Virus record (IMG/VR): IMGVR_UViG_3300025151_000019
Span: 1-64,000 of that record
From: a virus
DNA length: 64,000 bases
Strand: one strand, 5' to 3'
Shown here: one piece after another, positions 11,793-25,608 of the stretch
How the letters are laid out: each line of letters begins with the position of its first letter
Position numbering within the stretch: the first letter of the stretch is position 1
Notes under the pieces: model-generated
What the model saw: only the letters and a program-made list of their open reading frames with translations
What the model was told of the DNA's origin: nothing
Databases searched by the model: none
Translations under genes and position numbers: made by a program

Positions 11793-12095
11793 ATGAGTTG
11801 GGAAAAAATATTAAAAAATAAGGAAATTGATGTAGGTAGACAATATGCTGAAGAAGATATGATTGAATTTGATTTAAAAAAACTATTTCAAAATCGTTAT
11901 TTAATAAGAGACAGTAGTAGGCAGCGAGCAAATATAGATGGTTCAATAGAATTCCATATTATTTTAAGAGAAATTAAAAGAAAATACCCCAATATGACAC
12001 CAGATAGACTTAGAAATTATTTAAATAAATTTGAATATTATGGTCCTACTGAAACAAGAGATGGAAGACGAGATGTTTATTTTACTATGAGGTAG
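11793..12095 (+). CDS. Small protein with MSWEKILK start
   Basis: 100 aa, GGTGA SD. Confidence 0.75.
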   Translation: MSWEKILKNKEIDVGRQYAEEDMIEFDLKKLFQNRYLIRDSSRQRANIDGSIEFHIILREIKRKYPNMTPDRLRNYLNKFEYYGPTETRDGRRDVYFTMR

Positions 12096-12104
12096 TGAGG
12101 AATA

Positions 12105-13520
12105 ATGGATTTACTAACCGAAATGGATTTAGAAATGTCAAAGGGAAACTTCCCTTATTTCTTTGAAAAGGTTCTTGGATATGAATTAGCAGACTTTCAT
12201 CAAGAATGGTTAGACCTTGTAAATAACACATCACGAACAGTTATTATTTGTTCACGCGACCACGGCAAATCTGTTTTCTTTCATTCGTGGTGTGTTTATC
12301 AATTATGTTTTCAAGAACCACCATATCAAATGCTATACATTTCATCAAACCATAAACAGACAATGGTTCACATGAAAGACATTGACCGTATGTTCACAAA
12401 CATTCCTCAATTGAAAAAGTTCAAACCGAGAGGTGGGTGGGCGGTTGGTGCTATGCGTTTAACAAACGGTAATGAAATTCTTGAGCGTTCTGTTGGTTCT
12501 CAAATTCGTGGTCTTCACCCTCAAGAAATTATTATTGACGACCCTCTAAAAGAGTTCAGCATGACGGCTATTCAAAGAGTTACTGATTGGTTTTGGGGAG
12601 ATATGATTCCTACACTTCACCATACCGCTTCACTTAGAATGGTAGGGACACCATTTACTTACACAGATATTTTCGTGCAGTTAGAAGAAAACCCTGCATA
12701 CAATGTAGAAAGATACCCTGCTGTTAAACCTGATGGAACAGCACTTTGGCCTAATCGCTGGAGTCTTGAAATGCTTGAAGAGAGAAAGATTGAAATTGGT
12801 TCATCCAAGTTCACAAGAGAATATCTTTGCGTTCCTATCAGCACCAACACTATGCTTTTTCACCCTGATGCTATCAAAGCGTGTAAGAATGACTATGCTT
12901 CGCTTGAGAGCGTTTGTAGGGAGGGCTACCGCTACTTCATAGGATATGACCCTGCTATTTCATCAAATGGAGACTATACGGTGATGATGGTTTTAGAGGT
13001 GGATGATGATATGAATAAACAGGTTGTTCATATGCTTAGAGCAAAGGGTCTTGATTTTAGAGAACACATTAATCATGTAATGGAACTTTGTAGAAGATAC
13101 AAACCAGAAATTGTCATGATTGAAACAAATACATTTGCAAAGGCATTTGCTATGGAACTAAAAAATATCTCGGATTTTCCCGTCAAGGAATTTACAATGA
13201 GCCGAAAGAAAAAGGAAGAGATTATCCTTAACTTACAAATGAATATTGACAATGGGAAGATTGTTTTTCCCATGCAAAACGAAACATCAAGAAATGTTTC
13301 TAATCAAATTATCCAAGAATTAGGTGCTTTTGGAATTAACGCTCACGGTAAAATTGAAGGTGTTGGGGCGCATGACGATATTGTTATTGCGTTGGCTTTG
13401 GCTAACTATGCGACCAAATCCTTTAGCGATACCTTTTTAGACATTGATAGTAGTGGACTATTTAACAGCCCTACTACAACACCGCAGAAGGGAGGTGGAT
13501 TTTATGGTATTAATCTATAA
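12105..13520 (+). CDS. terL: Terminase large subunit
   Basis: Walker A-like SRDHGKS, Walker B IIIDD, GTP coupling motif, nuclease motifs IGYDPA and HDDIVIALALA. Confidence 0.95.
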   Translation: MDLLTEMDLEMSKGNFPYFFEKVLGYELADFHQEWLDLVNNTSRTVIICSRDHGKSVFFHSWCVYQLCFQEPPYQMLYISSNHKQTMVHMKDIDRMFTNIPQLKKFKPRGGWAVGAMRLTNGNEILERSVGSQIRGLHPQEIIIDDPLKEFSMTAIQRVTDWFWGDMIPTLHHTASLRMVGTPFTYTDIFVQLEENPAYNVERYPAVKPDGTALWPNRWSLEMLEERKIEIGSSKFTREYLCVPISTNTMLFHPDAIKACKNDYASLESVCREGYRYFIGYDPAISSNGDYTVMMVLEVDDDMNKQVVHMLRAKGLDFREHINHVMELCRRYKPEIVMIETNTFAKAFAMELKNISDFPVKEFTMSRKKKEEIILNLQMNIDNGKIVFPMQNETSRNVSNQIIQELGAFGINAHGKIEGVGAHDDIVIALALANYATKSFSDTFLDIDSSGLFNSPTTTPQKGGGFYGINL

Positions 13521-14904
13521 GGCTGAAGACCCTATTGATGTTGAGGAACTTGAAGAAAATCTCAATCAGGTTAAAAGAGTTGAAGAACAAAAAAAGGTTC
13601 TTGACGATTCTGTTAAACCTGTAAAAGATAAACTAAAGAATCAATTATCAAAAGGTAATATAAACGAATGGTTGGTAAAACAATATGGAAATGAAATTGA
13701 TATTGTTAAGAATATTTCTAAGGAATTAAATATTAATTTAACTGAGGCTACAAAATATATTGCGCCTCTACCTGTTGAACCTCTAATTGAAGGTAAGACT
13801 ATCCCTTCATTAGTTAAAGAACTAAGAACTATGAGAAGAAAGTTAAAAGGTGCACAAAGAGACACTTTAACAAAAGGTATAGACCATTTAATTACGGCTT
13901 ATGAGCAACATTTACAAAAATCATTAGATACAATTTATTGGTTAAAACCTTATCAGTTAGGTTTTAAGAAAATGGGACATAACCCCACACAAATTCAAAA
14001 ATTATACAACATTAAGGATGGTGAAACAAGAAGTAAAATTATTGAACTCTGTTGTAAAATGTGGGAAACTGATTTAGAGAAAAAGAGTTTAGATTATGGA
14101 ACTGATTATTCTAATTATCATAATAATTTTAACGAGGCTAAAAAAGAATTAAGAAAGTTATTAAAAAATATTCCACATCAATCACTTAGAGATTCAAAAA
14201 AGGATATGATTCAAAAAAGTGTTTTTGAAATTATTTCTAATAATCAGGGGTTATCAGCAAGTGAAGTTCATTCCAGACTAAGCCCTTCTCATTCTAAAAT
14301 TTCTACACCTCAATCTATTTCAAAGGTTTTAAAGAAAATAAATGCTACAAAAGTTAATAGTGAATATTACTTAATTAACAATATTATCAAAAAGGATTTG
14401 TATTCTTATGTTGCTGGCTTTATTGATTCTGATGGCTTTATTACAATGGATGCTTCGTTATCACCAAGAATCGGTATGATTGCTACGGGTAATAGGGGAA
14501 GAGCATTCTTTGAAGAATTAGAAAAAGAGTTAAAATGTGGCCGCCTACACCTTGACCAAAAGGTTGGAGAAAATAACAGAAGTCAGCACAGGCTTAACTT
14601 TTACAAACAGGATGATATTCTTCATGTTCTTGAAAAGTGCCTTCCTCACCTTAGAATGAAGCACACGCAGGGCAAGTTAATTCAGGAGGCTATTAGAATT
14701 AAGAAGAACTTCAAGAAGGCAGATTGGGCTAAGCCGAGACTTGGTGAGATTTTTAAATTAATCAAGTATGAAAATTGGAAGGACTCGGTTACTCAAGGTC
14801 CAAAGGAATTTAAAAAATATGGAATTGACCCCGAAGTAGTAGTTAAATACCATGATAATTCTAAAATGCAACTAATGGATAGTCTTGAAAGTGGGGTGGA
14901 ATGA
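13504..14904 (+). CDS. Helical domain + wHTH-like + LAGLIDADG endonuclease-domain fusion
   Basis: YVAGFIDSDGFI motif; start moved to ATG 13504 after GGAGGTGG. Confidence 0.8.
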   Translation: MVLIYKAEDPIDVEELEENLNQVKRVEEQKKVLDDSVKPVKDKLKNQLSKGNINEWLVKQYGNEIDIVKNISKELNINLTEATKYIAPLPVEPLIEGKTIPSLVKELRTMRRKLKGAQRDTLTKGIDHLITAYEQHLQKSLDTIYWLKPYQLGFKKMGHNPTQIQKLYNIKDGETRSKIIELCCKMWETDLEKKSLDYGTDYSNYHNNFNEAKKELRKLLKNIPHQSLRDSKKDMIQKSVFEIISNNQGLSASEVHSRLSPSHSKISTPQSISKVLKKINATKVNSEYYLINNIIKKDLYSYVAGFIDSDGFITMDASLSPRIGMIATGNRGRAFFEELEKELKCGRLHLDQKVGENNRSQHRLNFYKQDDILHVLEKCLPHLRMKHTQGKLIQEAIRIKKNFKKADWAKPRLGEIFKLIKYENWKDSVTQGPKEFKKYGIDPEVVVKYHDNSKMQLMDSLESGVE

Positions 14905-16544
14905 TGGGTCTTAGAGATTACTTAGGAGGCTTTGTTAAGCGACGAACCCCTACGCCAAACCAAAAAGAAGTCTACAATTTAGGCATTCAGGAAAAAAGAA
15001 ATATTCAGCACATTGTTGGACCTGTTCTTTATGATGTTGCTAATCAATCAACCATTGTTAGAACTTGTATTACTCAATTAAAAACTGAAATTTTCCGAAG
15101 AGGATTTGAATGGAAAAAAGCATTCTACAAAATTTGTAATAAGTGTGATACTAAGCATGAAAAAGAAACTGATGTTTGTAGAAATTGTGGTTCTAAAGAT
15201 TTGAGAGTTCCCTCTCAAGACCAAATTAATTACGCTGAAAAATTCTTTGATGGATATATTAACAGGTCAGAACAAAAATTAATTGATGTTCTAAAAGAAA
15301 TTGAAACTGATTTAAATATTGCTGATGATGCATATTTAATCTTAGTTAAGGAATATTATCTTGATGATAAGGGAAATGTTGTTCTTCATAAAATTAAAGA
15401 AATGTATAGGGGCGACCCATTAACTATGTATATTGATATTGATGAGGAAGGAGATAGAGGTGAAGCACATTATACTTGTATTACACATAGAGAAATTTAT
15501 GATACCGACTCATTAGCAAGGTGTCCTGTTTGTGATTGTAAATTACACCCTGTTCATTATATTAATAGAGTTCACGGAAAAGACCAATACTTTACAAAGG
15601 ATGAAGTTATCCATCTTAGCAAATACAACCCCTCAAGACTTTACGGCTTCTCTCCTATTTTGACGCTATGGAGTCATATTACTACTCTTATTGCTATGGA
15701 AAATTATGTCAATACTTCTTATACTAAAGCGAGAGCACCAAGAGGTATTCTTGCCGTTCAAACCAATAACATGGAATCTCTTGTTAAATATTGGAAGGGC
15801 GTTAAGGAAAAGTTAGAGAAAGACCCTCACTATATTCCTATTATGGGTATTGAAACCGATGGTGGTTCAAGAGGTTCAATTGAATGGGTTCAGTTTATGA
15901 ACACATTAAAAGAGATGGACTACATCAATGTTAAGGATGATTTGAGAGATAGAATTGGTGCTTTCTACGGAGTCAGTAAAATTTTCCAAGGAGATACCGC
16001 TACAAGTGGTGGTTTAAACAACGAAGGTATGCAGATTTTAGTTACTAATCGTTCTGTTGAATTAGCACAAAATGTCTATAATCAATACTTATTCCCATTC
16101 CTTCTAAAGCAATTTGGAATTACAGATTGGACTTTAACGCTACTGCGTTCTGAAGAAGAGGACAATGTGGCTGAATTAAGAAGAAGGGAAATTGAAATTA
16201 ATATTGCAGCCCAAATTAAAAATCTTGGGTTTGAAGTTGATATGGATGAAGATGGAAACTTTATTTATTCTAAACCTTTACCAAAGGAAGAACAACCTAT
16301 GGAAAGAGTCGGCGGTGGAGAGAAAGTTGAAACAGACCCATACGCAGGAACAAATATTGATGCCTCACAATTAGGACAGATGCAAGAACAGATGATGCAA
16401 GGAGGGTCTAAACCACAAGAAAACCCACCAGCAACGAGAAATAAACCATCTATGAGCGTTGGTCCTCCTAATAGAAATATGGGATTGCCGAGAGAAGCGG
16501 CAAATAATAATGTAGATAGAAGAACAGAAAGAAGAGTTGGTTAA
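14901..16544 (+). CDS. Portal protein with Zn-ribbon insertions
   Basis: Position after TerL; portal-like VIHLSKYNP...LYGFSPI and IGAFYGVS segments; CNKC/CRNC and CITH/CPVC pairs. Confidence 0.88.
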   Translation: MMGLRDYLGGFVKRRTPTPNQKEVYNLGIQEKRNIQHIVGPVLYDVANQSTIVRTCITQLKTEIFRRGFEWKKAFYKICNKCDTKHEKETDVCRNCGSKDLRVPSQDQINYAEKFFDGYINRSEQKLIDVLKEIETDLNIADDAYLILVKEYYLDDKGNVVLHKIKEMYRGDPLTMYIDIDEEGDRGEAHYTCITHREIYDTDSLARCPVCDCKLHPVHYINRVHGKDQYFTKDEVIHLSKYNPSRLYGFSPILTLWSHITTLIAMENYVNTSYTKARAPRGILAVQTNNMESLVKYWKGVKEKLEKDPHYIPIMGIETDGGSRGSIEWVQFMNTLKEMDYINVKDDLRDRIGAFYGVSKIFQGDTATSGGLNNEGMQILVTNRSVELAQNVYNQYLFPFLLKQFGITDWTLTLLRSEEEDNVAELRRREIEINIAAQIKNLGFEVDMDEDGNFIYSKPLPKEEQPMERVGGGEKVETDPYAGTNIDASQLGQMQEQMMQGGSKPQENPPATRNKPSMSVGPPNRNMGLPREAANNNVDRRTERRVG

Positions 16545-16545
16545 A

Positions 16546-16767
16546 ATGAACTGGGAAAATATTAAGAAAGAAATTAGAAGAAAACCTCCTACTAAAGTAG
16601 CGGGTGGTGCAGACCAAGAATTAGAAGAAACCATGTCAGAAGACAATAGAGAACTAATTGCTAATACAAGAAGAAGCACTTTACAGGCAATTTATAAAAT
16701 TTTAAAGGATATGGGTGAAGAAGAACTTGTTAAAATTTTAGAAGAAAGACTTAAGGGGATGGAATAA
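16546..16767 (+). CDS. Small protein with MNWENIKK start
   Basis: ATG 16546 immediately after the portal stop. Confidence 0.7.
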   Translation: MNWENIKKEIRRKPPTKVAGGADQELEETMSEDNRELIANTRRSTLQAIYKILKDMGEEELVKILEERLKGME

Positions 16768-16994: not shown

Positions 16995-19379
16995 ATGTCT
17001 TGGCAACTCATTCTAAAAGAAATTCCATTTAAAGTTAGGGATTTCCGAGCCATTGATAAAAAGGCGAAGAAGATTTGGAATGATGGAGGGCGTAAGGAAG
17101 AATTATCTAAAATTATTGTTAGATTAATTAGAGAAAAATACAATACTTCTGATGAAGAATTAATGGAAGATTTTAAAAAGTATTTAGAAACATTATCAGG
17201 GTATGCTCAAACCTCAAGAGTTAGAAGTAAGCAAAAGTATGATAGGTTTGAAGAAAGAAAGCCGTTATCACCACAAACAGACCCTAATTATCAACAAACA
17301 ATTAGGGAACTTGATAAGAGAGATGAAATTGTTGATGAATTAACAACATTGTTTGGAACAATTTTAGCACAAGACACTTCTACTCCTGATGAGGAAATTA
17401 TTCGCCAGTTTGATAAATTTAAAGATAAACTTGAAAGAGAGGAAAAGAGAAGAGAATTGAAAGACACCACTCCTAAGAAAAGGCGCAGAAAAACTAAACC
17501 TAAAGTAAAAACAGGAAAACTTGATTCTTTTGAAGACTCTTTTCCTAAAAGTGCACAAATGTTTAGAGAGTGGGTTGAATCTTCTTATCTTTCCATTTCG
17601 TTTTCAAAATTAAATAGATTGCTCAGTTTGGTTGGCTCTCCTACTATTAGTAATGATGAAACTATTGGTAGATTAAAGAAATTTATTAAAGATGAAAAAT
17701 TGAGCAATAAAGATAAAACTGCTCTAACCGCTATTGCTGACCAAATGGTAAAGGAGAATAATGAAAAACCAAGAAGCAACAGAAGATTATCTGGTAATGT
17801 CGTTCAAGCAAGAGCATTAGGATTAGATATTGCTAAGAGAAGTAGTATGAACAAAACCAATTTAGTGATTAGATTTGGTGATGATAGAAAAATAGAAATT
17901 AAAGGAAAACAAAGAAATTTCTTAGATAATTTTGAAAGATTAGATTTAACTAATGATAGTTTTTATAATAATCCAAATACCAGAGATATTTTTGAATATT
18001 GGGTAAAGGAATCTGGGTATACAGGTTCTGCTGAAAAATTTATTAAATTAGATGCTTTAGAAAAAAGCAAATATATTAAAAATATTATGAGAAATATTCC
18101 AGAATATCCTACAAATGTTATTAAAGTTGGTCTTTTGTATAGAGATATGTTTGAAGATAATCAAGCAGGACTTATTATTGATAAGGAAAAAGCCCCTGAA
18201 GAATTTGCTTATTTTCTTCAAGGTTTGAGAGATGGACTTATGGGTGGTAAATCGGCAAGAACGGCATTTGATTTTAACATTCTCAAGAAATTTAACAATC
18301 GTATTTTACCTCAACTTATTGATGCTATTAAGAGAGGTGTTTTCGTTGATGCAGAAGGAGAGCGTCAATTTAGATTAGGTCCTCCTGTTTCTAAATTAAT
18401 GAACAGGTTAAGTAAAGACCAAGAAGATAAAAGCGAAATTATTTCTGTTATTGGAGATGTTATCCGAGGGCAAAATATTTCAAATAAATATCAAGGTTCA
18501 GATAAAGATACTCTTGCTAAAATTGAATCAGATATTAGAGACCAATTAAAAGAAAAGGTTGCTGGTAAAACGGTAGCCTCATATTTACTTTCCACATTTA
18601 CTAAATTGTATAAAAAGGAAGGTATTTTAAGTAGTATTCTGAATGCCAAAACTGTTATTCCTGTTGAATATCTTAAACCTTCTGATGTGCCTGAAAAAGA
18701 AAGTCCTATGGGTAAAAAGCCTAAATATATACCCGACCCTAATAAAAAGGTGAAACCTCCAAAAGACCCTCCAAAAGCAGGTAAAAAATTATTTGAATGG
18801 GTTGATAAAGAAACTGAAAGACTTCAAGCAATTTCAGATGATAAAGAAAATGATATAACCTACACCGAAGAAGATATTCATAGAATAGTGGGTTGGAAAA
18901 AAGGAACGGTTAAAGAAATAAAACGCGGACCTACTGGAGAAATAATTCGTGATAAAGATGGTAATGCCGTTGAAGTGGAAAGAGAAAAATACATTAAATA
19001 TAATCCTAAAGAGGAGACAAAAAAATCTCTTGACAATCTATTGGTAGCCATCGGTGAAGAAGATGAAATTATTATCAAAGAGGATATTGGTCTTATCCTT
19101 GAGTCCCTTGACAAAAAGCAGAAGAAAAAAGTTAAGGCAATTTTAAATATCGCAGACCCCACAGAATACTTTGGACACGATTTCCTCAAGTTATCCGAAC
19201 TGATTCGTTTGTTGAAAACATTAGGCGTTGTAAAGGGCGACAAAAAGTTAAACAAAAAGATTTTGAGATATGACGAAGAAAATGTGAAGGTAGTAAAGTT
19301 GGCCGCAAGACTAAGAAAGGATTATGAAAGACTTTACGATGATTTGAGAGAAATGATATACCCTAAGAGTGGTGAATAA
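16995..19379 (+). CDS. Large hypothetical protein (794 aa) with MSWQLILK start
   Basis: Long ORF with basic and Pro-rich patches. Confidence 0.8.
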   Translation: MSWQLILKEIPFKVRDFRAIDKKAKKIWNDGGRKEELSKIIVRLIREKYNTSDEELMEDFKKYLETLSGYAQTSRVRSKQKYDRFEERKPLSPQTDPNYQQTIRELDKRDEIVDELTTLFGTILAQDTSTPDEEIIRQFDKFKDKLEREEKRRELKDTTPKKRRRKTKPKVKTGKLDSFEDSFPKSAQMFREWVESSYLSISFSKLNRLLSLVGSPTISNDETIGRLKKFIKDEKLSNKDKTALTAIADQMVKENNEKPRSNRRLSGNVVQARALGLDIAKRSSMNKTNLVIRFGDDRKIEIKGKQRNFLDNFERLDLTNDSFYNNPNTRDIFEYWVKESGYTGSAEKFIKLDALEKSKYIKNIMRNIPEYPTNVIKVGLLYRDMFEDNQAGLIIDKEKAPEEFAYFLQGLRDGLMGGKSARTAFDFNILKKFNNRILPQLIDAIKRGVFVDAEGERQFRLGPPVSKLMNRLSKDQEDKSEIISVIGDVIRGQNISNKYQGSDKDTLAKIESDIRDQLKEKVAGKTVASYLLSTFTKLYKKEGILSSILNAKTVIPVEYLKPSDVPEKESPMGKKPKYIPDPNKKVKPPKDPPKAGKKLFEWVDKETERLQAISDDKENDITYTEEDIHRIVGWKKGTVKEIKRGPTGEIIRDKDGNAVEVEREKYIKYNPKEETKKSLDNLLVAIGEEDEIIIKEDIGLILESLDKKQKKKVKAILNIADPTEYFGHDFLKLSELIRLLKTLGVVKGDKKLNKKILRYDEENVKVVKLAARLRKDYERLYDDLREMIYPKSGE

Positions 19380-19380
19380 A

Positions 19381-19608
19381 ATGGATGAAGAATTGACATT
19401 ATTATTGAAAGAATTAGTAGAGAGAGTCAAGACCTTAGAAACAACCGTCTTTGATAGAGACAATGTGCTAATGAAGTCTGGTCTTGTAAAAGTTGAGAGC
19501 CAAGCACCGTCTATTCAAACGGCGGGAAGAATCCCATCAGCCGATACAATCGCAAAGATGGATTGGAAGGATATTGACGAACTTGTTGTTAGATTAAGTG
19601 GTGAGTAA
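19381..19608 (+). CDS. Small scaffold-like protein ending IAKMDWKDIDELV
   Basis: C-terminus resembles the prohead protease/scaffold C-terminus. Confidence 0.7.
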   Translation: MDEELTLLLKELVERVKTLETTVFDRDNVLMKSGLVKVESQAPSIQTAGRIPSADTIAKMDWKDIDELVVRLSGE

Positions 19609-19609
19609 A

Positions 19610-20242
19610 ATGGATTGGGAAAGTAAAACAGATGTAACTATGGACTTTACGGCAGATGCAAGAGGAGAAGATAAAGTTACTGCGGTATTAACGCAATTAA
19701 TTGAAGTTGGAAATTTGATTTCAAATCATCTTGGTAGTCATATTGACCCAAGTGCAAAGGCTACAAGTGGAAAGGCTAAGACTCCTCAACAAGTTGATGT
19801 TACGAGAATGGCTATGAAACCATTAACTGAAGCACAAGAAAAGACGGCTGGTAGTGTATACAAAAATAGACAAATGCCTACACGAGATTATACAGGCCGA
19901 ATAATTTCTAAAGAAGATATTGACGATGTTGTTGATGATAATATGGATGAATATCTAAGAAGGAATCCTGATGAAAGAAGAAGAGATGAAGTTAATGATG
20001 ATGAAGAAAAGGTTTTATTAACACTAACGAGATTTGGTGATGATGAAGAAAAACTTAATCCTGCTATGACCGCACTCTCCATGTTGGATAATGAGGAAAA
20101 GGCTATGGCTAATCCTCTTTCTACTTCGGAAGGTAAAGCACTTCTTTCTGCTCTTAATGAAGCCGCAAATAAACTCCGAGCATTTTTATCAACAACGAGA
20201 GTTGATGCAAGTTCAGCACAAATGCCCCAAGATATGCGCTGA
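19610..20242 (+). CDS. Hypothetical protein with DDEEK/NEEK repeats; core/scaffold-like
   Basis: MDWESK start; three acidic-Lys repeats. Confidence 0.7.
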   Translation: MDWESKTDVTMDFTADARGEDKVTAVLTQLIEVGNLISNHLGSHIDPSAKATSGKAKTPQQVDVTRMAMKPLTEAQEKTAGSVYKNRQMPTRDYTGRIISKEDIDDVVDDNMDEYLRRNPDERRRDEVNDDEEKVLLTLTRFGDDEEKLNPAMTALSMLDNEEKAMANPLSTSEGKALLSALNEAANKLRAFLSTTRVDASSAQMPQDMR

Positions 20243-20251
20243 GGTGTTTAA

Positions 20252-22990
20252 TTGCCTCCAGAAACGGGTAGGATTGACCCTTTATCAAGGTCATTAAGAA
20301 GTCTTTATGATAAGGTTAGAGTTGCATATTTAAGTGCAAGAGAAAGACCTAAGGATTACAAAGACGAATGGAATAAAGTCATTGAAGAAATTCGTGATAA
20401 TTGGGATAGCCCTAACCCTATTGGTGATTTATTAAGAGATGAATTATCCGAATCGTTAATTTATAGCGAAGAGGTAAAAGACCCTCAAGGTGCTAAAGCA
20501 AAAAGAGTTTATCAAAATATTAAGGAAGTTCAAGAACAGACCTCATTAAGTAAAGACCCGTTTAGAAAGAAATTTGGTGAAAAATTACCAAAGTTACTGC
20601 TTAACAATACTCAAGTATATGCTATGTTTTTGCATTGGGCATATAGAGCAGGTCGTGGTGCTTTAGATGGATGGGATGAAGTAGGAGATTTAAAGGATGA
20701 TTTTACAGAAGGTTATGTCGGTTTAGATTTAACAGATGGAGAATTGTTTAGATGGCTTCAGAAAAATTATGGCGACGATGTTGATGTTAAAAGGTTAAAG
20801 CGTAAAATGCAACCAGCAAGAGAAATGCTTTACGAGGTTTATACAAAGGAAAATAGTGCTTCTTCTTGGCAGGAATTAACAGATACTAAGAGAATTTTAA
20901 AACAGGAAAAAATTATTACTGTTAATCAAATTAGATATATGACTGATGATGGTTATAAAAAAGTAAATGTTAATCATATTTTAACATATGAAGATTTAAA
21001 TTTAAATGAAGAATCTTCCGTTGATGAAATAGAAGATGCTATTTTAGATTATTTATCAGGTGTTGAGCCTTATTTAGTTGATGAATTTAATTATACTATC
21101 GGTAGTCAAGGCGACCCAGATTTTTCTACTAAGAATGCTATGCTTAAGGAGGACAAGGAATTAAACGATTTTATTATTCCCAACAAACCTATGTATCGCA
21201 TCTTTGAAATTGACGATATGAAAGAAATTAAGGGCTTTTCAGGAGATTATGTTGTCCAAGAAAAGTATGACGGTATGCGTATTCAAATTCACAAGAATAA
21301 GGAAATTAAAATTTATTCTTTTAACCAAAGAGATATTACCAGAAAGTTTGACAAACAAGTAGAACTTATGCGTAATGATGATTTCCCTGAATGTATTTTA
21401 GATGCCGAAGTTGTTCTTTATGAAAATGATGAACCACTACATAGAGCAGATACTATTTCATACATTAATTCTAAGAAAGACGATTCCGCCTTTGAATTAA
21501 GAGTTCATGTGTTTGATATTATTCGTCTTAACGGAGAACACATTTGGAAGAACAAATTAGAAGAAAGACTTCAAACCTTAATGGGTAATTTTAACAAAGT
21601 TTCTCATAGACAATTACAATTTCCTACAAAATCCAATACCAGATTTGCAGACTCATTAGAGGACATTGAAGAATACGCTATGGAAATTATGAAAAATCCT
21701 ACATCCGAAGGGGTAATTATTAAAGATGCTAAGTCTTCATATATTGTAGGTAAGAAGAAAAATCCAAAGTGGGTCAAATGGAAAAAATTTGTTGATTTGG
21801 ATTTATTAATTTTAGAGGTTAGAAAGAACAAAAATGGAACATTTAGTTATACATTGGGTGCTGGACCTTTAGGAGATGAAGAGTATAAACCCGTTGTTCG
21901 TTACAAAAATAAAGATTATCTAAATGTTGGTAAGGCTCTTAATACTAAAATTAAATCGGAAGAGGGTAATATCATCCGAGTTAAGGTTGATGAAGTTAAG
22001 AAAACAAAAAAGGGTTTCTCAATTTATAGTGCTAAGGTTATTGAAAAGCCCGAAGTTACTGAGCCAGAAAAAATTATTACCCTTGAGTTTTTATCTAAAG
22101 ACAATAAAAAATCTGCATCTGATTATGCAATTGAAGCCCTTACAAAATCATATTCAATCACAGATAATGTTCACGGTGTTGTAGATTTAAACACATCCTA
22201 TGATACAGAAGGATTTGTTTTATCAGGATTTTTACAAAATAATTTAATGGCTAAAAATGCTATGATAGATATTGATTTGTGGAAACAAGAACTTGCTCAA
22301 ATTTACAAAAAAGATAGTGGTAAATTAATGAGTATTATTTCTGAAATTGTATATGAGGGTGAAATTACAAAACAGGACTTAATTAAGAAATTAAAAGAAA
22401 AGGCACCTGATATTATTAAGAGAATTTTTTCTGATGGGGATATTGAAAAGGGCTTGGCTAAATATATTAAAGAAAGAGGTGAAGCCTTTGGTATTTTATA
22501 CAATAAAGAGAGGCAGAAGTTTTATCATGACGATAAAACATTAGTCAAAGACCCAGAAAATATCGGAAAGATGGAAGATAATACCTATGAAATTTGGAGA
22601 AGAGAGGACGGAGATTTAAATTTTATTTATCAAATTAAAGAAAAAACATTTGCGTGGCGCATTGAGCAGGATAAAATTGAGGATATGTATGAATTGTTCG
22701 GAAAGGCTGAACGATTTTTGGCTGAATATGATAAAGAACCACAGAAGGATAAGAAGGTTGATGAGGGAACAATTAAAATTGGTTCTCAAAGAGATGGCTA
22801 TCACGAATATTTCCTAAAGGGTAAAATGTATTCGGGTAAGATTCATTTCCGAATTGTTAAAATTATGGAAGAAGATAAGTGGATTGTCTTTACTGGATAT
22901 AAAGAAGAGCCAACAGACAAAGATAGTGATGAAGGATTGTGGGATATTTCGGAAGATAAATATATAAATATTACATTTTCTGAAGAATAA
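20252..22990 (+). CDS. lig: Multidomain ATP-dependent DNA ligase with N-terminal extension and C-terminal LigD phosphoesterase-like domain
   Basis: Motif I EKYDG, III ILDAEVV, IIIa VFDII, IV EGVIIK, V WVKWK, then OB domain; TTG start after GAGGTG. Confidence 0.88.
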   Translation: MPPETGRIDPLSRSLRSLYDKVRVAYLSARERPKDYKDEWNKVIEEIRDNWDSPNPIGDLLRDELSESLIYSEEVKDPQGAKAKRVYQNIKEVQEQTSLSKDPFRKKFGEKLPKLLLNNTQVYAMFLHWAYRAGRGALDGWDEVGDLKDDFTEGYVGLDLTDGELFRWLQKNYGDDVDVKRLKRKMQPAREMLYEVYTKENSASSWQELTDTKRILKQEKIITVNQIRYMTDDGYKKVNVNHILTYEDLNLNEESSVDEIEDAILDYLSGVEPYLVDEFNYTIGSQGDPDFSTKNAMLKEDKELNDFIIPNKPMYRIFEIDDMKEIKGFSGDYVVQEKYDGMRIQIHKNKEIKIYSFNQRDITRKFDKQVELMRNDDFPECILDAEVVLYENDEPLHRADTISYINSKKDDSAFELRVHVFDIIRLNGEHIWKNKLEERLQTLMGNFNKVSHRQLQFPTKSNTRFADSLEDIEEYAMEIMKNPTSEGVIIKDAKSSYIVGKKKNPKWVKWKKFVDLDLLILEVRKNKNGTFSYTLGAGPLGDEEYKPVVRYKNKDYLNVGKALNTKIKSEEGNIIRVKVDEVKKTKKGFSIYSAKVIEKPEVTEPEKIITLEFLSKDNKKSASDYAIEALTKSYSITDNVHGVVDLNTSYDTEGFVLSGFLQNNLMAKNAMIDIDLWKQELAQIYKKDSGKLMSIISEIVYEGEITKQDLIKKLKEKAPDIIKRIFSDGDIEKGLAKYIKERGEAFGILYNKERQKFYHDDKTLVKDPENIGKMEDNTYEIWRREDGDLNFIYQIKEKTFAWRIEQDKIEDMYELFGKAERFLAEYDKEPQKDKKVDEGTIKIGSQRDGYHEYFLKGKMYSGKIHFRIVKIMEEDKWIVFTGYKEEPTDKDSDEGLWDISEDKYINITFSEE

Positions 22991-22999
22991 CCCTATTCC

Positions 23000-23010
23000 T
23001 TTATATAATA
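23000..23010 (+). promoter_or_regulatory. Putative archaeal TATA box for the protease-capsid operon
   Basis: TTTATATAATA 20-30 nt upstream of ATG 23030, which has no SD (leaderless spacing). Confidence 0.5.
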
Positions 23011-23029
23011 GTTAAACAGATGTATTAAC

Positions 23030-24268
23030 ATGACTCTTAGGGTAAAGCCGATTCGTCTGGGAAACAAACCCTCTTCAGGTTCGGAATTAGTTATTCTTAA
23101 GGGAACAGGAAAGGATATGGTTATTGCTGGATATGCATCCGTGGATGTAGTAGATAAGCAAAACGATTTAATTACATTAGAAGCACTAAGAGATGCTTCG
23201 GACAAATTTATGAAGAGTGATTATAAGAATGTAATGATTACTCATTCAAATGTGCAGGTGGGAGAAGTTATTGACACCTATACAGATACAAAAGGCAATG
23301 TTCTAAAAACGGGCGTTGATGATACAGGATTCTTTGTTGTTATCAAAATGAGGAACGACATTGAGAAAGCGAAGGAGGTTAGCCGTGATATTAGAAGAGG
23401 CAAACTTCGCTCTTTCAGCATCGGTGGACAGGCTATTAACAAGCACAATGTTCACGACCCCGATATTGGAACATACAAAGAAATAGATAAATTAGAACTC
23501 CACGAAATCACTATTTGTGAAGAAGGGATTAACCCTGAAGCCAAATTTGAGATTGTGAAAGAAAACAAAAAAGGAAGTGAAACTATGACTGACGAAATTA
23601 GTAAGGCTTTGGCCGAATTTGAAGACCTCGTTTCTCAACTACGAAATCAAACGATTTTGAAGGATGATTCAGACGATGAAAAGATGTATGCCGACAAAGA
23701 AAAGATGGAAGACGACGATGAGGAAAACATGGAATACAAGGCTGAAGACGACGATGAAGAGATGATGGATGATACCGAAGAAAAGGCGATTGATTCCACC
23801 GTTTATGGACACAATGCAACGGGACAAAAAATGGGTGAGGCTAACCTTACGGGTCGTTATGATTCGGAATTTAGCCAATTCCTTGCCCGAAAGTCCGAAC
23901 AAATTCAAACGCTTGACCTTTCCGATGAAAATATCGCAAAGGCTTATGCTCAATTCAAGGCCGAAAAGGAAGAAGAGAGAGCATATGATGTTATCAAGGA
24001 ACAATTTGAGGCTCGCTATCAGGCTGAATTAGCAACTGAGGCAAACGCTATTGCAAAGGAGAACTATGATGCACACGCTGAAGTGGCCGCATTAAAGAAC
24101 GAATTTGCACAACTGCGAAAGTCGCTTAACTCCCATAAGGAAGTTATTGCAAAGCAGGCTGTCCCAACCACGCAACCAGCAATTAGTGAAGATGTTATTG
24201 CTAAGATGAACAACCTTCACGAAATGTCTTGGGATGAAATTAACGAATTGGTGCGTGAACTACAATAA
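23030..24268 (+). CDS. HK97-type prohead protease fused to scaffold domain
   Basis: IAGYASVDVVDKQND, His, SFSIGG, ELHEITIC..G.NPEA; acidic coiled-coil C-terminal half; directly upstream of MCP. Confidence 0.92.
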   Translation: MTLRVKPIRLGNKPSSGSELVILKGTGKDMVIAGYASVDVVDKQNDLITLEALRDASDKFMKSDYKNVMITHSNVQVGEVIDTYTDTKGNVLKTGVDDTGFFVVIKMRNDIEKAKEVSRDIRRGKLRSFSIGGQAINKHNVHDPDIGTYKEIDKLELHEITICEEGINPEAKFEIVKENKKGSETMTDEISKALAEFEDLVSQLRNQTILKDDSDDEKMYADKEKMEDDDEENMEYKAEDDDEEMMDDTEEKAIDSTVYGHNATGQKMGEANLTGRYDSEFSQFLARKSEQIQTLDLSDENIAKAYAQFKAEKEEERAYDVIKEQFEARYQAELATEANAIAKENYDAHAEVAALKNEFAQLRKSLNSHKEVIAKQAVPTTQPAISEDVIAKMNNLHEMSWDEINELVRELQ

Positions 24269-24282
24269 AGGAAGTGAAAAAA

Positions 24283-25608
24283 ATGTCAGGATTAAACCAA
24301 ATTAGAACAATTCAAGATTTAGAAGCCGCAACCTACGGCAACCTCGGAACCAACTCTCTTTTGAAGGGATATGGTATTGGGGCTGGTGTAAATACGGGCT
24401 TGCATACCGATTCTTCAACGGGCGCATTTAGCCCCAATGCACTTTATAACTTAGTGTATGGGCAAAAAGTGTGGTCTATGTTGAACCGAGAAATTAACGC
24501 TTTTGCTATGCTTCCTAAGAAGCCGTGGTCGTCAAGTGGTTGGCGAATTATGACTGAGCGAGCAATTGGTGGTGCTGGTGATACAATTAGTATTACTGGT
24601 GGAACTGGTCAAGGTTCAATTACTGAAGGTGTTATTGGTGGTGTTGCAGAAAACGCCGCATTTACTACCGCAGTTACTGATGCTTTTTCCCCTATTGCAC
24701 CTCGTTATGAAACGCTTTATGTTTCGCCTAAGACGATTGCACATCAGTTTGAATTAAGTGAACTTGCTGCTGCTATGGCTCAAATTGATGATGGTATCGG
24801 TGATTTAATGGCCGCATACCGTGAAGAAGTCGGTGTTACTCACGCAGAAATGATGAATCATATGCTTTTGACTCCTCTTGAAAGCATGGTTACTGGTTCA
24901 AACCCTGCTATGGTTACTGGAGTTACCAATAATATTACCTCCCTTTACAAGATTGTTTCTAACCAAGCAGAATTAGCAAATGCTGATGGTGGAAACCTGT
25001 TTAGCGGTGCTTATTCTCACGCTGATGCTGAGGAACTTAGAACGCTTTACGGTAAAGACCGATATAATAGCGGTGGCGTTGCCCTTACTTACATGGAGTC
25101 CTATGTGGATTACGGTGATTATTCTGGTAGCCGAAGACCTCTTACTTTGAATATGCTTAACACGGCTCTTCGTGAGTTGCAAATTCGTGGTGCTTCACCA
25201 AAGGTTATTCTTACGGGCTATGATACTATTCAGGCTCTTGGTGAATTACTCCAATCTCAAGAGAGATACATGGGTAGAACTGAAGTTATGCCTACCGTGA
25301 ATGGTATTAAGGGTGTTAAAGGCCGAGAAGTTGGTTTCAAGGTCGCTACTTATCACGACATTCCTATCATTCCTTGTAAGGAAATGGGTTCAACGGGAAG
25401 CGGCTCAGGTCTTTCGGATATTTTTATCCTTGATACCGACCATTTCCACTTCGCTACGCTTAAGCCAACCGAATACTTTGAGGGTGGTATTGATTCGGGC
25501 GACCCATTCGGTGTCGGAAAGTTGGGCAACCGAGGTATGTATAGAACCATCGGTGAAGTTGTCTGCACTTGGGTTAGAGCACAGGGTAAAATTACCAACC
25601 TCTCTTGA
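24283..25608 (+). CDS. Major capsid protein (HK97 fold)
   Basis: Follows the protease; ~440 aa; GGAAGTGA SD before ATG 24283; capsid-like ATYHDIPII and IFILD segments. Confidence 0.88.
   Translation: MSGLNQIRTIQDLEAATYGNLGTNSLLKGYGIGAGVNTGLHTDSSTGAFSPNALYNLVYGQKVWSMLNREINAFAMLPKKPWSSSGWRIMTERAIGGAGDTISITGGTGQGSITEGVIGGVAENAAFTTAVTDAFSPIAPRYETLYVSPKTIAHQFELSELAAAMAQIDDGIGDLMAAYREEVGVTHAEMMNHMLLTPLESMVTGSNPAMVTGVTNNITSLYKIVSNQAELANADGGNLFSGAYSHADAEELRTLYGKDRYNSGGVALTYMESYVDYGDYSGSRRPLTLNMLNTALRELQIRGASPKVILTGYDTIQALGELLQSQERYMGRTEVMPTVNGIKGVKGREVGFKVATYHDIPIIPCKEMGSTGSGSGLSDIFILDTDHFHFATLKPTEYFEGGIDSGDPFGVGKLGNRGMYRTIGEVVCTWVRAQGKITNLS

Follow-up and report, generated by a model that had tools for sequence, protein, structure and literature searches.

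In phage lambda (C/Nu3), phage P2 (gpO) and the herpesviruses (UL26/UL26.5) the protease and the scaffold are nested, the shorter scaffold being made from an in-frame internal start and having the same shell-binding C-terminal end as the protease-scaffold. Encapsulin cargo proteins carry short terminal loading peptides which dock on the inner face of an HK97-fold shell, and the HK97 maturation protease reportedly has a C-terminal encapsidation tail, said to have been described by Duda, Oh and Hendrix in 2013. In phage 80alpha the last 16-21 residues of the scaffold bind the N-arm helix of the capsid protein, and the 72-aa CpmB protein of SaPI1, in which a flexible leg hangs below a pairing domain, binds the same site by a homologous tail on that leg (PMC5644958). 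The capsid targeting sequence of T4 suffices for the loading of foreign proteins, and the prohead protease cuts it off (PMC9958956). Here we compare these systems with the head genes of a window of 64,000 nucleotides (by which we mean the whole stretch of DNA analysed), which is the first 64 kb of the complete 95,639-bp virus record IMGVR_UViG_3300025151_000019, in which direct terminal repeats are present. Within it, a separate gene for a protein of 75 aa (19381..19608, plus strand) and the gene for the protease-scaffold (23030..24268, plus strand) end in the same tryptophan (Trp) motif, and a partly similar N-terminal peptide, M-x-W-x-x-I-L-K, which we refer to as the tag, starts 27 genes in the 95.6-kb genome.

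The virus is a magrovirus-type archaeal tailed virus from the ocean, of the type described for Marine Group II archaea (PMC5434244), and that paper makes no mention of a Trp tail, the small gene, a nested start or a tag. The literature that we searched also contained no description of the tag or of the 75-aa gene in magroviruses. Magroviruses are abundant in the ocean and their hosts are uncultured Marine Group II archaea.

Two head genes end in the same tryptophan motif

The protease-scaffold, of 412 aa, has an S78 prohead serine protease domain at its N-terminal end (Pfam PF04586, E 3.9e-11, residues 29-179, above the curated cut-off) fused to a helical scaffold region, and it also matches the PHROG head maturation protease (E 8e-18). 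Its C-terminal end before the stop codon is VIAKMNNLHEMSWDEINELVRELQ, with M-S-W beginning at 24224, and that of the small protein (75 aa when counted from its ATG) is TIAKMDWKDIDELVVRLSGE, with M-D-W at 19558; a preliminary description of the window had the coordinates and sequences of both tails correct. The Trp motif of the scaffold, L-H-E-M-S-W-D-E-I-N-E-L-V, takes up residues L396-V408 (24215..24253, plus strand), where W401 is invariant and E403 nearly invariant. That of the small protein, I-A-K-M-D-W-K-D-I-D-E-L-V, takes up residues I57-V69 (19549..19587, plus strand), where K59, M60, W62, D66 and V69 are invariant in 33 sequences. The observation in the preliminary description that both tails carry M-[S/D]-W-x-[D/E]-I is borne out across the family, the Trp being invariant in 42 distinct pairs of tails from 63 loci, but the gapped alignment which it gave of the two tails is not, as an ungapped alignment of L-H-E-M-S-W with I-A-K-M-D-W fits the family columns better, both genes matching column by column across the pairs. 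The V-I-A-K-M found just upstream in the window's scaffold looks like a six-residue insertion or local duplication specific to the window clade.

Three lineages were compared: the window clade, consisting of 49 loci with 50-93% protease identity, and clades B and C (approximately 50% and 40% protease identity respectively), which were reached via distant protease-scaffold homologues. Within the window clade both tails are kept in every locus whose DNA extends far enough, the small gene being found in 27/27 loci with enough upstream DNA; in clades B and C the small gene lies one to four genes past the portal gene and its end repeats the scaffold end of its own lineage. Homology between the window family and the small proteins of clade C, which are 106-116 aa long, is backed by an hhalign probability of 91.5% (P 9e-7). 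The tails of the 42 gene pairs share the motif I-[AHS]-x-M-[SD]-W-x-[DE]-I-[NDH]-x-[LMF]-V, running from W-5 to W+7, and the residue make-up of its 13 columns is parallel between the scaffold and the small gene. When the conservation of both termini was checked, the Trp was invariant (26/26 scaffolds, 33/33 small proteins and all of the pairs) and W+3 was hydrophobic, being always I/L/V in the small proteins and I/V/L in the scaffolds of 39/42 distinct pairs, apart from Ala in 3/42, all from one subclade. Ser and Asp at W-1 are swapped between the two genes in clade B compared to the window clade, suggesting that the tails are interchangeable variants and that neither form is tied to one gene. 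Unpaired tails share a mean of 6/14 residues. Distant S78 protease-scaffolds (35-50% identity) end in the same Trp motif and many more distant ones end in [KN]-M-[SD]-W-x-[ED]-[IV]-H-x-[LM]-A, which argues that the Trp tail is an old feature of this protease-scaffold family. In the Haloarcula virus HVTV-1 the protease C-terminal end and a small upstream open reading frame (ORF) were without a clear Trp motif.

The small gene is a probable paralogue of the scaffold end

The small gene and the genes on either side of it overlap by 4-11 nt. Depending on the locus, it lies in frame +1 or -1 with respect to the upstream 794-aa gene, which rules out that the ORF is a frameshift extension of the 794-aa gene and marks it as an independent gene. 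Its family comes entirely from marine metagenomes (49 clusters, 63-78 aa) and has no named relative, and no match to the protein was obtained in Pfam, PHROG or PDB profile searches. The small protein has an N-terminal amphipathic helix (3-22), a conserved V-L-M-K-S-G-L-V centre, a variable linker and a C-terminal Trp helix; AlphaFold2 (AF2) predicted a helix at 3-22 (predicted local distance difference test, pLDDT, ~87), a disordered middle and helices at 54-58 and 62-72 (pLDDT ~80), the last helix beginning exactly at the Trp in the AF2 models of both the scaffold and the small protein. In a profile-profile comparison residues 4-74 of the small protein were colinear with residues 351-412 of the scaffold (P 3-4e-4, at 3.9e-4), with helix paired with helix, V-L-M-K-S-G with V-I-A-K-Q and tail with tail. 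This supports the view that the small protein is a duplicate, or paralogue, of the last ~60 residues of the scaffold (helix, linker and Trp helix), and the suggestion in the preliminary description that 19381..19608 is a second scaffold has thus gained support at the level of homology and architecture, with the same predicted helix layout in both proteins and the gene present in three lineages. Like CpmB, it is a small helical protein with a C-terminal tail homologous to the scaffold tail.

The last three residues of the small protein, S-G-E, lie outside the Trp motif. A junction, AGTGGTGA[A/G]TAAAATGGAT, ends both the 794-aa gene (19364-19386) and the small gene (19591-19613), and the C-terminal S-G-E common to the two proteins is explained by this junction being the GGTGA ribosome-binding site of the next gene, translated.

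A probable nested scaffold would also carry the tail

The protease-scaffold gene ends 15 nt before the capsid ATG at 24283 and this order is alike in all lineages. AF2 placed scaffold helices at 188-208 and 280-376 (including 299-343 and 348-376) and then, after a linker, at 387-394 and 401-411, in a model that was poor overall; the tail had a pLDDT of 61-79 and the terminal helix begins at W401. The protein has the features of the scaffold class in that its gene is directly upstream of the capsid gene and it is helical, with a conserved amphipathic terminal helix after a flexible linker.

An internal ATG at 23585 (M186, just past the protease domain) is invariant in 26/26 homologues and always has a Shine-Dalgarno (SD)-like element 5-9 nt before it, the type of which varies by clade (GGAAGTGA, GGTGAT, GGAGGA), and the residues encoded at the element change too between clades. 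The window's element, which together with the ATG lies within 23570-23587, is identical to that preceding the capsid gene. Contig L023 (256-1518) has one ORF for the protease and, next to it, another for the scaffold, the break falling at the M186 position, and two database representatives start at residue 186. The sequence thus points to a start at M186, from which a nested scaffold of 227 aa (23585..24268, plus strand), similar to that of lambda C/Nu3, is probably made and, given the internal ATG and its ribosome-binding site, three products would carry the Trp tail.

Proposed model of head assembly

On balance we think it probable that the Trp tail docks the scaffold and the protease on the capsid protein, that the small protein is an auxiliary mini-scaffold or adaptor, and that the tags perhaps use the same pocket. 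The 13-residue C-terminal Trp motif would attach the scaffold and the protease to the inner side of the assembling shell, and its three carriers would be the 412-aa protease-scaffold, the nested 227-aa scaffold beginning at M186 and the 75-aa protein from its own gene, the last of which would consist of a pairing helix, a flexible linker and a docking helix and would occupy the same shell sites as the scaffold. The docking site would most likely be the conserved N-terminal arm of the major capsid protein, which is of the HK97-fold type (24283..25608, plus strand; PHROG major head protein, E 2.5e-27; Pfam SU10_MCP) and is ~27% identical to the capsid proteins of Haloarcula tailed viruses. Its N-terminal helix, I-R-T-I-x-D-L-E-x-A-T-Y-G, is strongly conserved in all three lineages and so is a plausible docking arm. 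A complex prediction for the capsid protein with the small protein gave a score of 0.00 and, having been run without controls, counts neither way. The N-terminal tags share the helix-start half of the motif and may use the same Trp/Ile pocket, which is the weakest step of the model. That the tail docks on the capsid protein is inferred by analogy with systems of solved structure, and what the small protein does and whether the tags enter that pocket are inferences as well.

After its N-terminal helix the capsid protein has a conserved [SN]-[LI]-L-K in three lineages (24355-24366), followed by a variable Gly-rich stretch, and this is a plausible candidate for a maturation cut. Hydrophobic-hydrophobic-Lys sites like that of the capsid protein are found at invariant positions of the small protein (K10, K32 and K59) and of the scaffold (K375).

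Likeness between the tails and the N-terminal tags

Most of the tagged genes lie in an array spanning the record ends (82.7 kb to 5.2 kb) and three are near the terminase and portal genes; related loci yielded 143 distinct tagged N-termini. As in T4, a short N-terminal peptide is common to unrelated proteins of one virus. Examples of the tags are M-S-W-Q-L-I-L-K of the 794-aa head-module protein (16995..17018, plus strand), whose gene covers 16995-19379, and M-N-W-E-N-I-K-K of a 73-aa protein encoded directly after the portal gene (16546..16569, plus strand). Several clades have five to eight of the tagged genes in the interval from portal to protease, the usual site of genes for head-internal proteins. 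Ten tagged proteins were searched against Pfam, PHROGs and PDB profiles and nothing usable was obtained. The tag codons for Leu, Ile, Lys and Ser vary synonymously, showing that selection acts on the tag peptide and not on the DNA, and on these grounds a cause at the DNA level (promoter, ribosome-binding site or recombination linker) was rejected as the main one. A virus chaperonin was ruled out as the tag receptor, as there is no Cpn60/TCP1 gene in the complete genome.

A matrix made from the genome's 27 N-terminal tags was run over 119 ORFs, 29,227 positions in all. On its first six columns (M-S-W-x-x-I) the two tails scored 13.7 and 12.2 bits, within the range of true tags, and were the best non-tag sites among all of these positions. 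A shuffled proteome would be expected to yield approximately 0.4 such sites and one named tail of 15 positions approximately 2e-4, the two tail matches counting as a single event because the tails are paralogous.

Several points weigh against the model, most of them against its extension to the tags. The statistics of the paralogy are moderate (hhalign probability 36-39%, with low alignment diversity), and the excess similarity of two tails from one genome, at P 0.0012 over all pairs, loses significance (P 0.12) when the clades are collapsed to ten representatives, which falls short of demonstrating co-evolution with a common partner. On all eight columns of the tag matrix the tails scored 6.0 and 4.4 bits, compared to at least 17 for all but one of the matrix tags. 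Among 188 distinct M(x)W N-termini from all loci, the tags carry L/I at W+4 (84%) and K at W+5 (80%), with no conserved position beyond, whereas the tails carry N/D/H at W+4 and L/M/F-V at W+6/7, and these patterns are mutually exclusive. The half that they do share, M-[STD]-W-x-[ED]-hydrophobic, has the pattern by which helices generally begin (hydrophobic-[STD]-x-x-[ED]-hydrophobic), with a capping box and a hydrophobic staple, and so much of the match may be structural grammar and one Trp, the specific shared content thus being the Trp, the acidic residue and the Ile/Val. When Ser, Thr, Ala or Gly follows the initiator Met, that Met is usually cleaved off. The 794-aa orthologues are tagged in some clades only, being elsewhere untagged or split, and a tagged 100-aa gene with no family match (11793-12095) lies directly upstream of the large terminase gene, a position where a small terminase subunit is expected.

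Taken together, the likeness between tag and tail is real but partial, above chance and short of proof for a shared receptor. The preliminary description had proposed that the tag mimics or derives from the scaffold helix, and this is half supported, as the resemblance stands over M-[SD]-W-x-[DE]-I but does not extend to W+4 to W+7, where the two differ.

Somewhat short of an even chance, in our estimate, is the explanation that the tag and the scaffold tail are functionally unrelated, both being a generic helix start with a Trp, and that the tags act via another partner (for example the scaffold core, as in T4) or as a cleavage or stability signal ending in I-L-K. It would account for the mutually exclusive conservation of the second halves and for the full matrix placing the tails far below the real tags, and it agrees with M standing directly before W in 42/188 tags (22%) and with the scaffold subclade which has Ala at W+3, where the tags of the same loci keep Ile. 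The recurrence of hydrophobic-hydrophobic-Lys in the capsid N-terminal end, the small protein and the scaffold fits a protease site, and the T4 tag, which goes to the core, is itself a substrate of the prohead protease (PMC9958956). Functional independence sits less well with the tails being the top non-tag matches in the proteome on six columns, at the low expectation per named tail given above, and with the presence of tagged genes in the head block of several clades.

If the tails and the tags do share a pocket, the tag might be a two-part signal derived from the scaffold docking helix, with S-W-x-D-I sitting in the capsid pocket and I-L-K forming a cut for the S78 protease, by which dozens of fast-changing proteins per genome would be loaded into the head, trimmed and, along with the DNA, delivered to the host. 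We advance this tentatively and consider it rather doubtful; if true, archaeal viruses would possess a means of loading proteins that is both natural and programmable.

Tag-like peptides were also seen away from the tagged starts. The 210-aa gene after the small gene starts M-D-W-E-S-K (19610-19627), which is half of a tag without the I-L-K, and its orthologues start M-E-W-D-K-K in close clades and have no such start in distant clades. In clade B the 794-aa orthologue consists of a large protein and a tagged protein of ~115-144 aa which keeps the conserved C-terminal end (contig L062, 5413-7044), and in contig L069 (3107-6810) the large part of the split orthologue ends in the tag-like S-S-W-Q-E-I-L-K. 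Within the tag array, the genes at 5-679 and 1047-1475 have the C-terminal ends K-S-W-E-G-V-L-E and K-S-W-E-I-L-R, just before the next tagged start, and these C-terminal tag-like peptides may be remnants of junction duplications.

Other partners and roles for the tail

It seems unlikely to us that the Trp motif binds the portal, the protease domain or other scaffold molecules rather than the capsid protein, and that the small protein joins the scaffold core. Such a partner would suit the position of the small gene, which in every lineage is one to four genes downstream of the portal gene and shows translational coupling with the genes beside it, and the N-terminal helix of the small protein, which aligns with a scaffold helix, could pair with it. 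However, those scaffold C-terminal tails that are structurally known (80alpha and CpmB) touch the capsid protein, as does that of P22 by genetics (PMC5644958), and a motif at a free end after a flexible linker fits an element that reaches out to dock. Docking on the capsid protein remains the reading that we prefer. As for the portal-proximal place given to the small protein in the preliminary description, it is the position of the gene that may hint at it.

That the small protein instead competes with the scaffold, capping shell sites to time assembly or to set curvature or head size as CpmB of SaPI1 does, would fit its CpmB-like size class, pairing helix and homologous docking tail (PMC5644958), but we think it very improbable as the small gene is viral and not satellite-encoded, has a fixed place in every lineage examined, and a second head size is neither known nor needed.

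The head-gene block

The head block is common to hundreds of marine IMG/VR contigs of 60-107 kb and has, on the plus strand, the order large terminase, portal, two small ORFs, the 794-aa, 75-aa, 210-aa and 912-aa genes, protease-scaffold and capsid. It starts with the large terminase gene (12105-13520, plus strand), and the portal gene (14901..16544, plus strand; PHROG portal, E 3e-69; Pfam Phage_portal) opens the conserved head-gene block that contains the 75-aa gene. The 912-aa protein (20252-22990) has an ATP-dependent DNA ligase domain (PF01068, E 1e-28); the window clade and clade B retain orthologues of it, 680-870 aa long, and in clade C a giant protein of 1800-2140 aa is found in its place.

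Comparison with known systems

The Trp tail, the nested scaffold and the mini-scaffold together would make a concrete model for head assembly in magroviruses. Should the tag and the tail share a pocket, natural cargo loading of an HK97-fold shell would hinge on the tail peptide, which would bear on what these viruses inject into their hosts and might be of use in protein encapsulation. If there is no shared pocket, the tag needs another explanation and the mini-scaffold is still a same-genome counterpart of the CpmB principle.

The tag is like that of T4 in being an N-terminal peptide of ~8-10 residues on otherwise unrelated proteins of one virus (PMC9958956). The T4 tag differs in its sequence and goes to the scaffolding core, whereas the magrovirus tags, recognised from the genes, number ~27 per genome. 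With the HK97 protease tail and the encapsulin peptides the tails and tags have in common a short terminal peptide on a protease or a cargo protein, a likeness drawn from this arrangement; those systems are not known to have a separately encoded small paralogue bearing the tail.

The protease-scaffold gene itself is of the lambda C/Nu3 type, with an S78 protease and a conserved internal ATG behind an SD-like element, the start being read here from sequence. Unlike the lambda type, it has a third carrier of the tail, in a separate paralogous gene ~3.4 kb upstream.

A close match is that of the gp46 scaffold of 80alpha with CpmB of SaPI1 (PMC5644958), in which, as here, a full scaffold is accompanied by a helical protein of ~72-75 aa and the two have homologous C-terminal tails. 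There, both tails sit on the same capsid N-arm site, CpmB has an N-terminal pairing domain and a flexible leg, and the tail is a helix-and-hook with R-I-I-K; the magrovirus tail is a Trp helix for which such binding is proposed. CpmB is also encoded by a satellite that hijacks a helper phage and redirects its head size, whereas the small gene is fixed in the virus's own head block and implies no redirection of head size, and so in this virus the full scaffold and its small counterpart are both encoded in one genome, where they are conserved together in three lineages.

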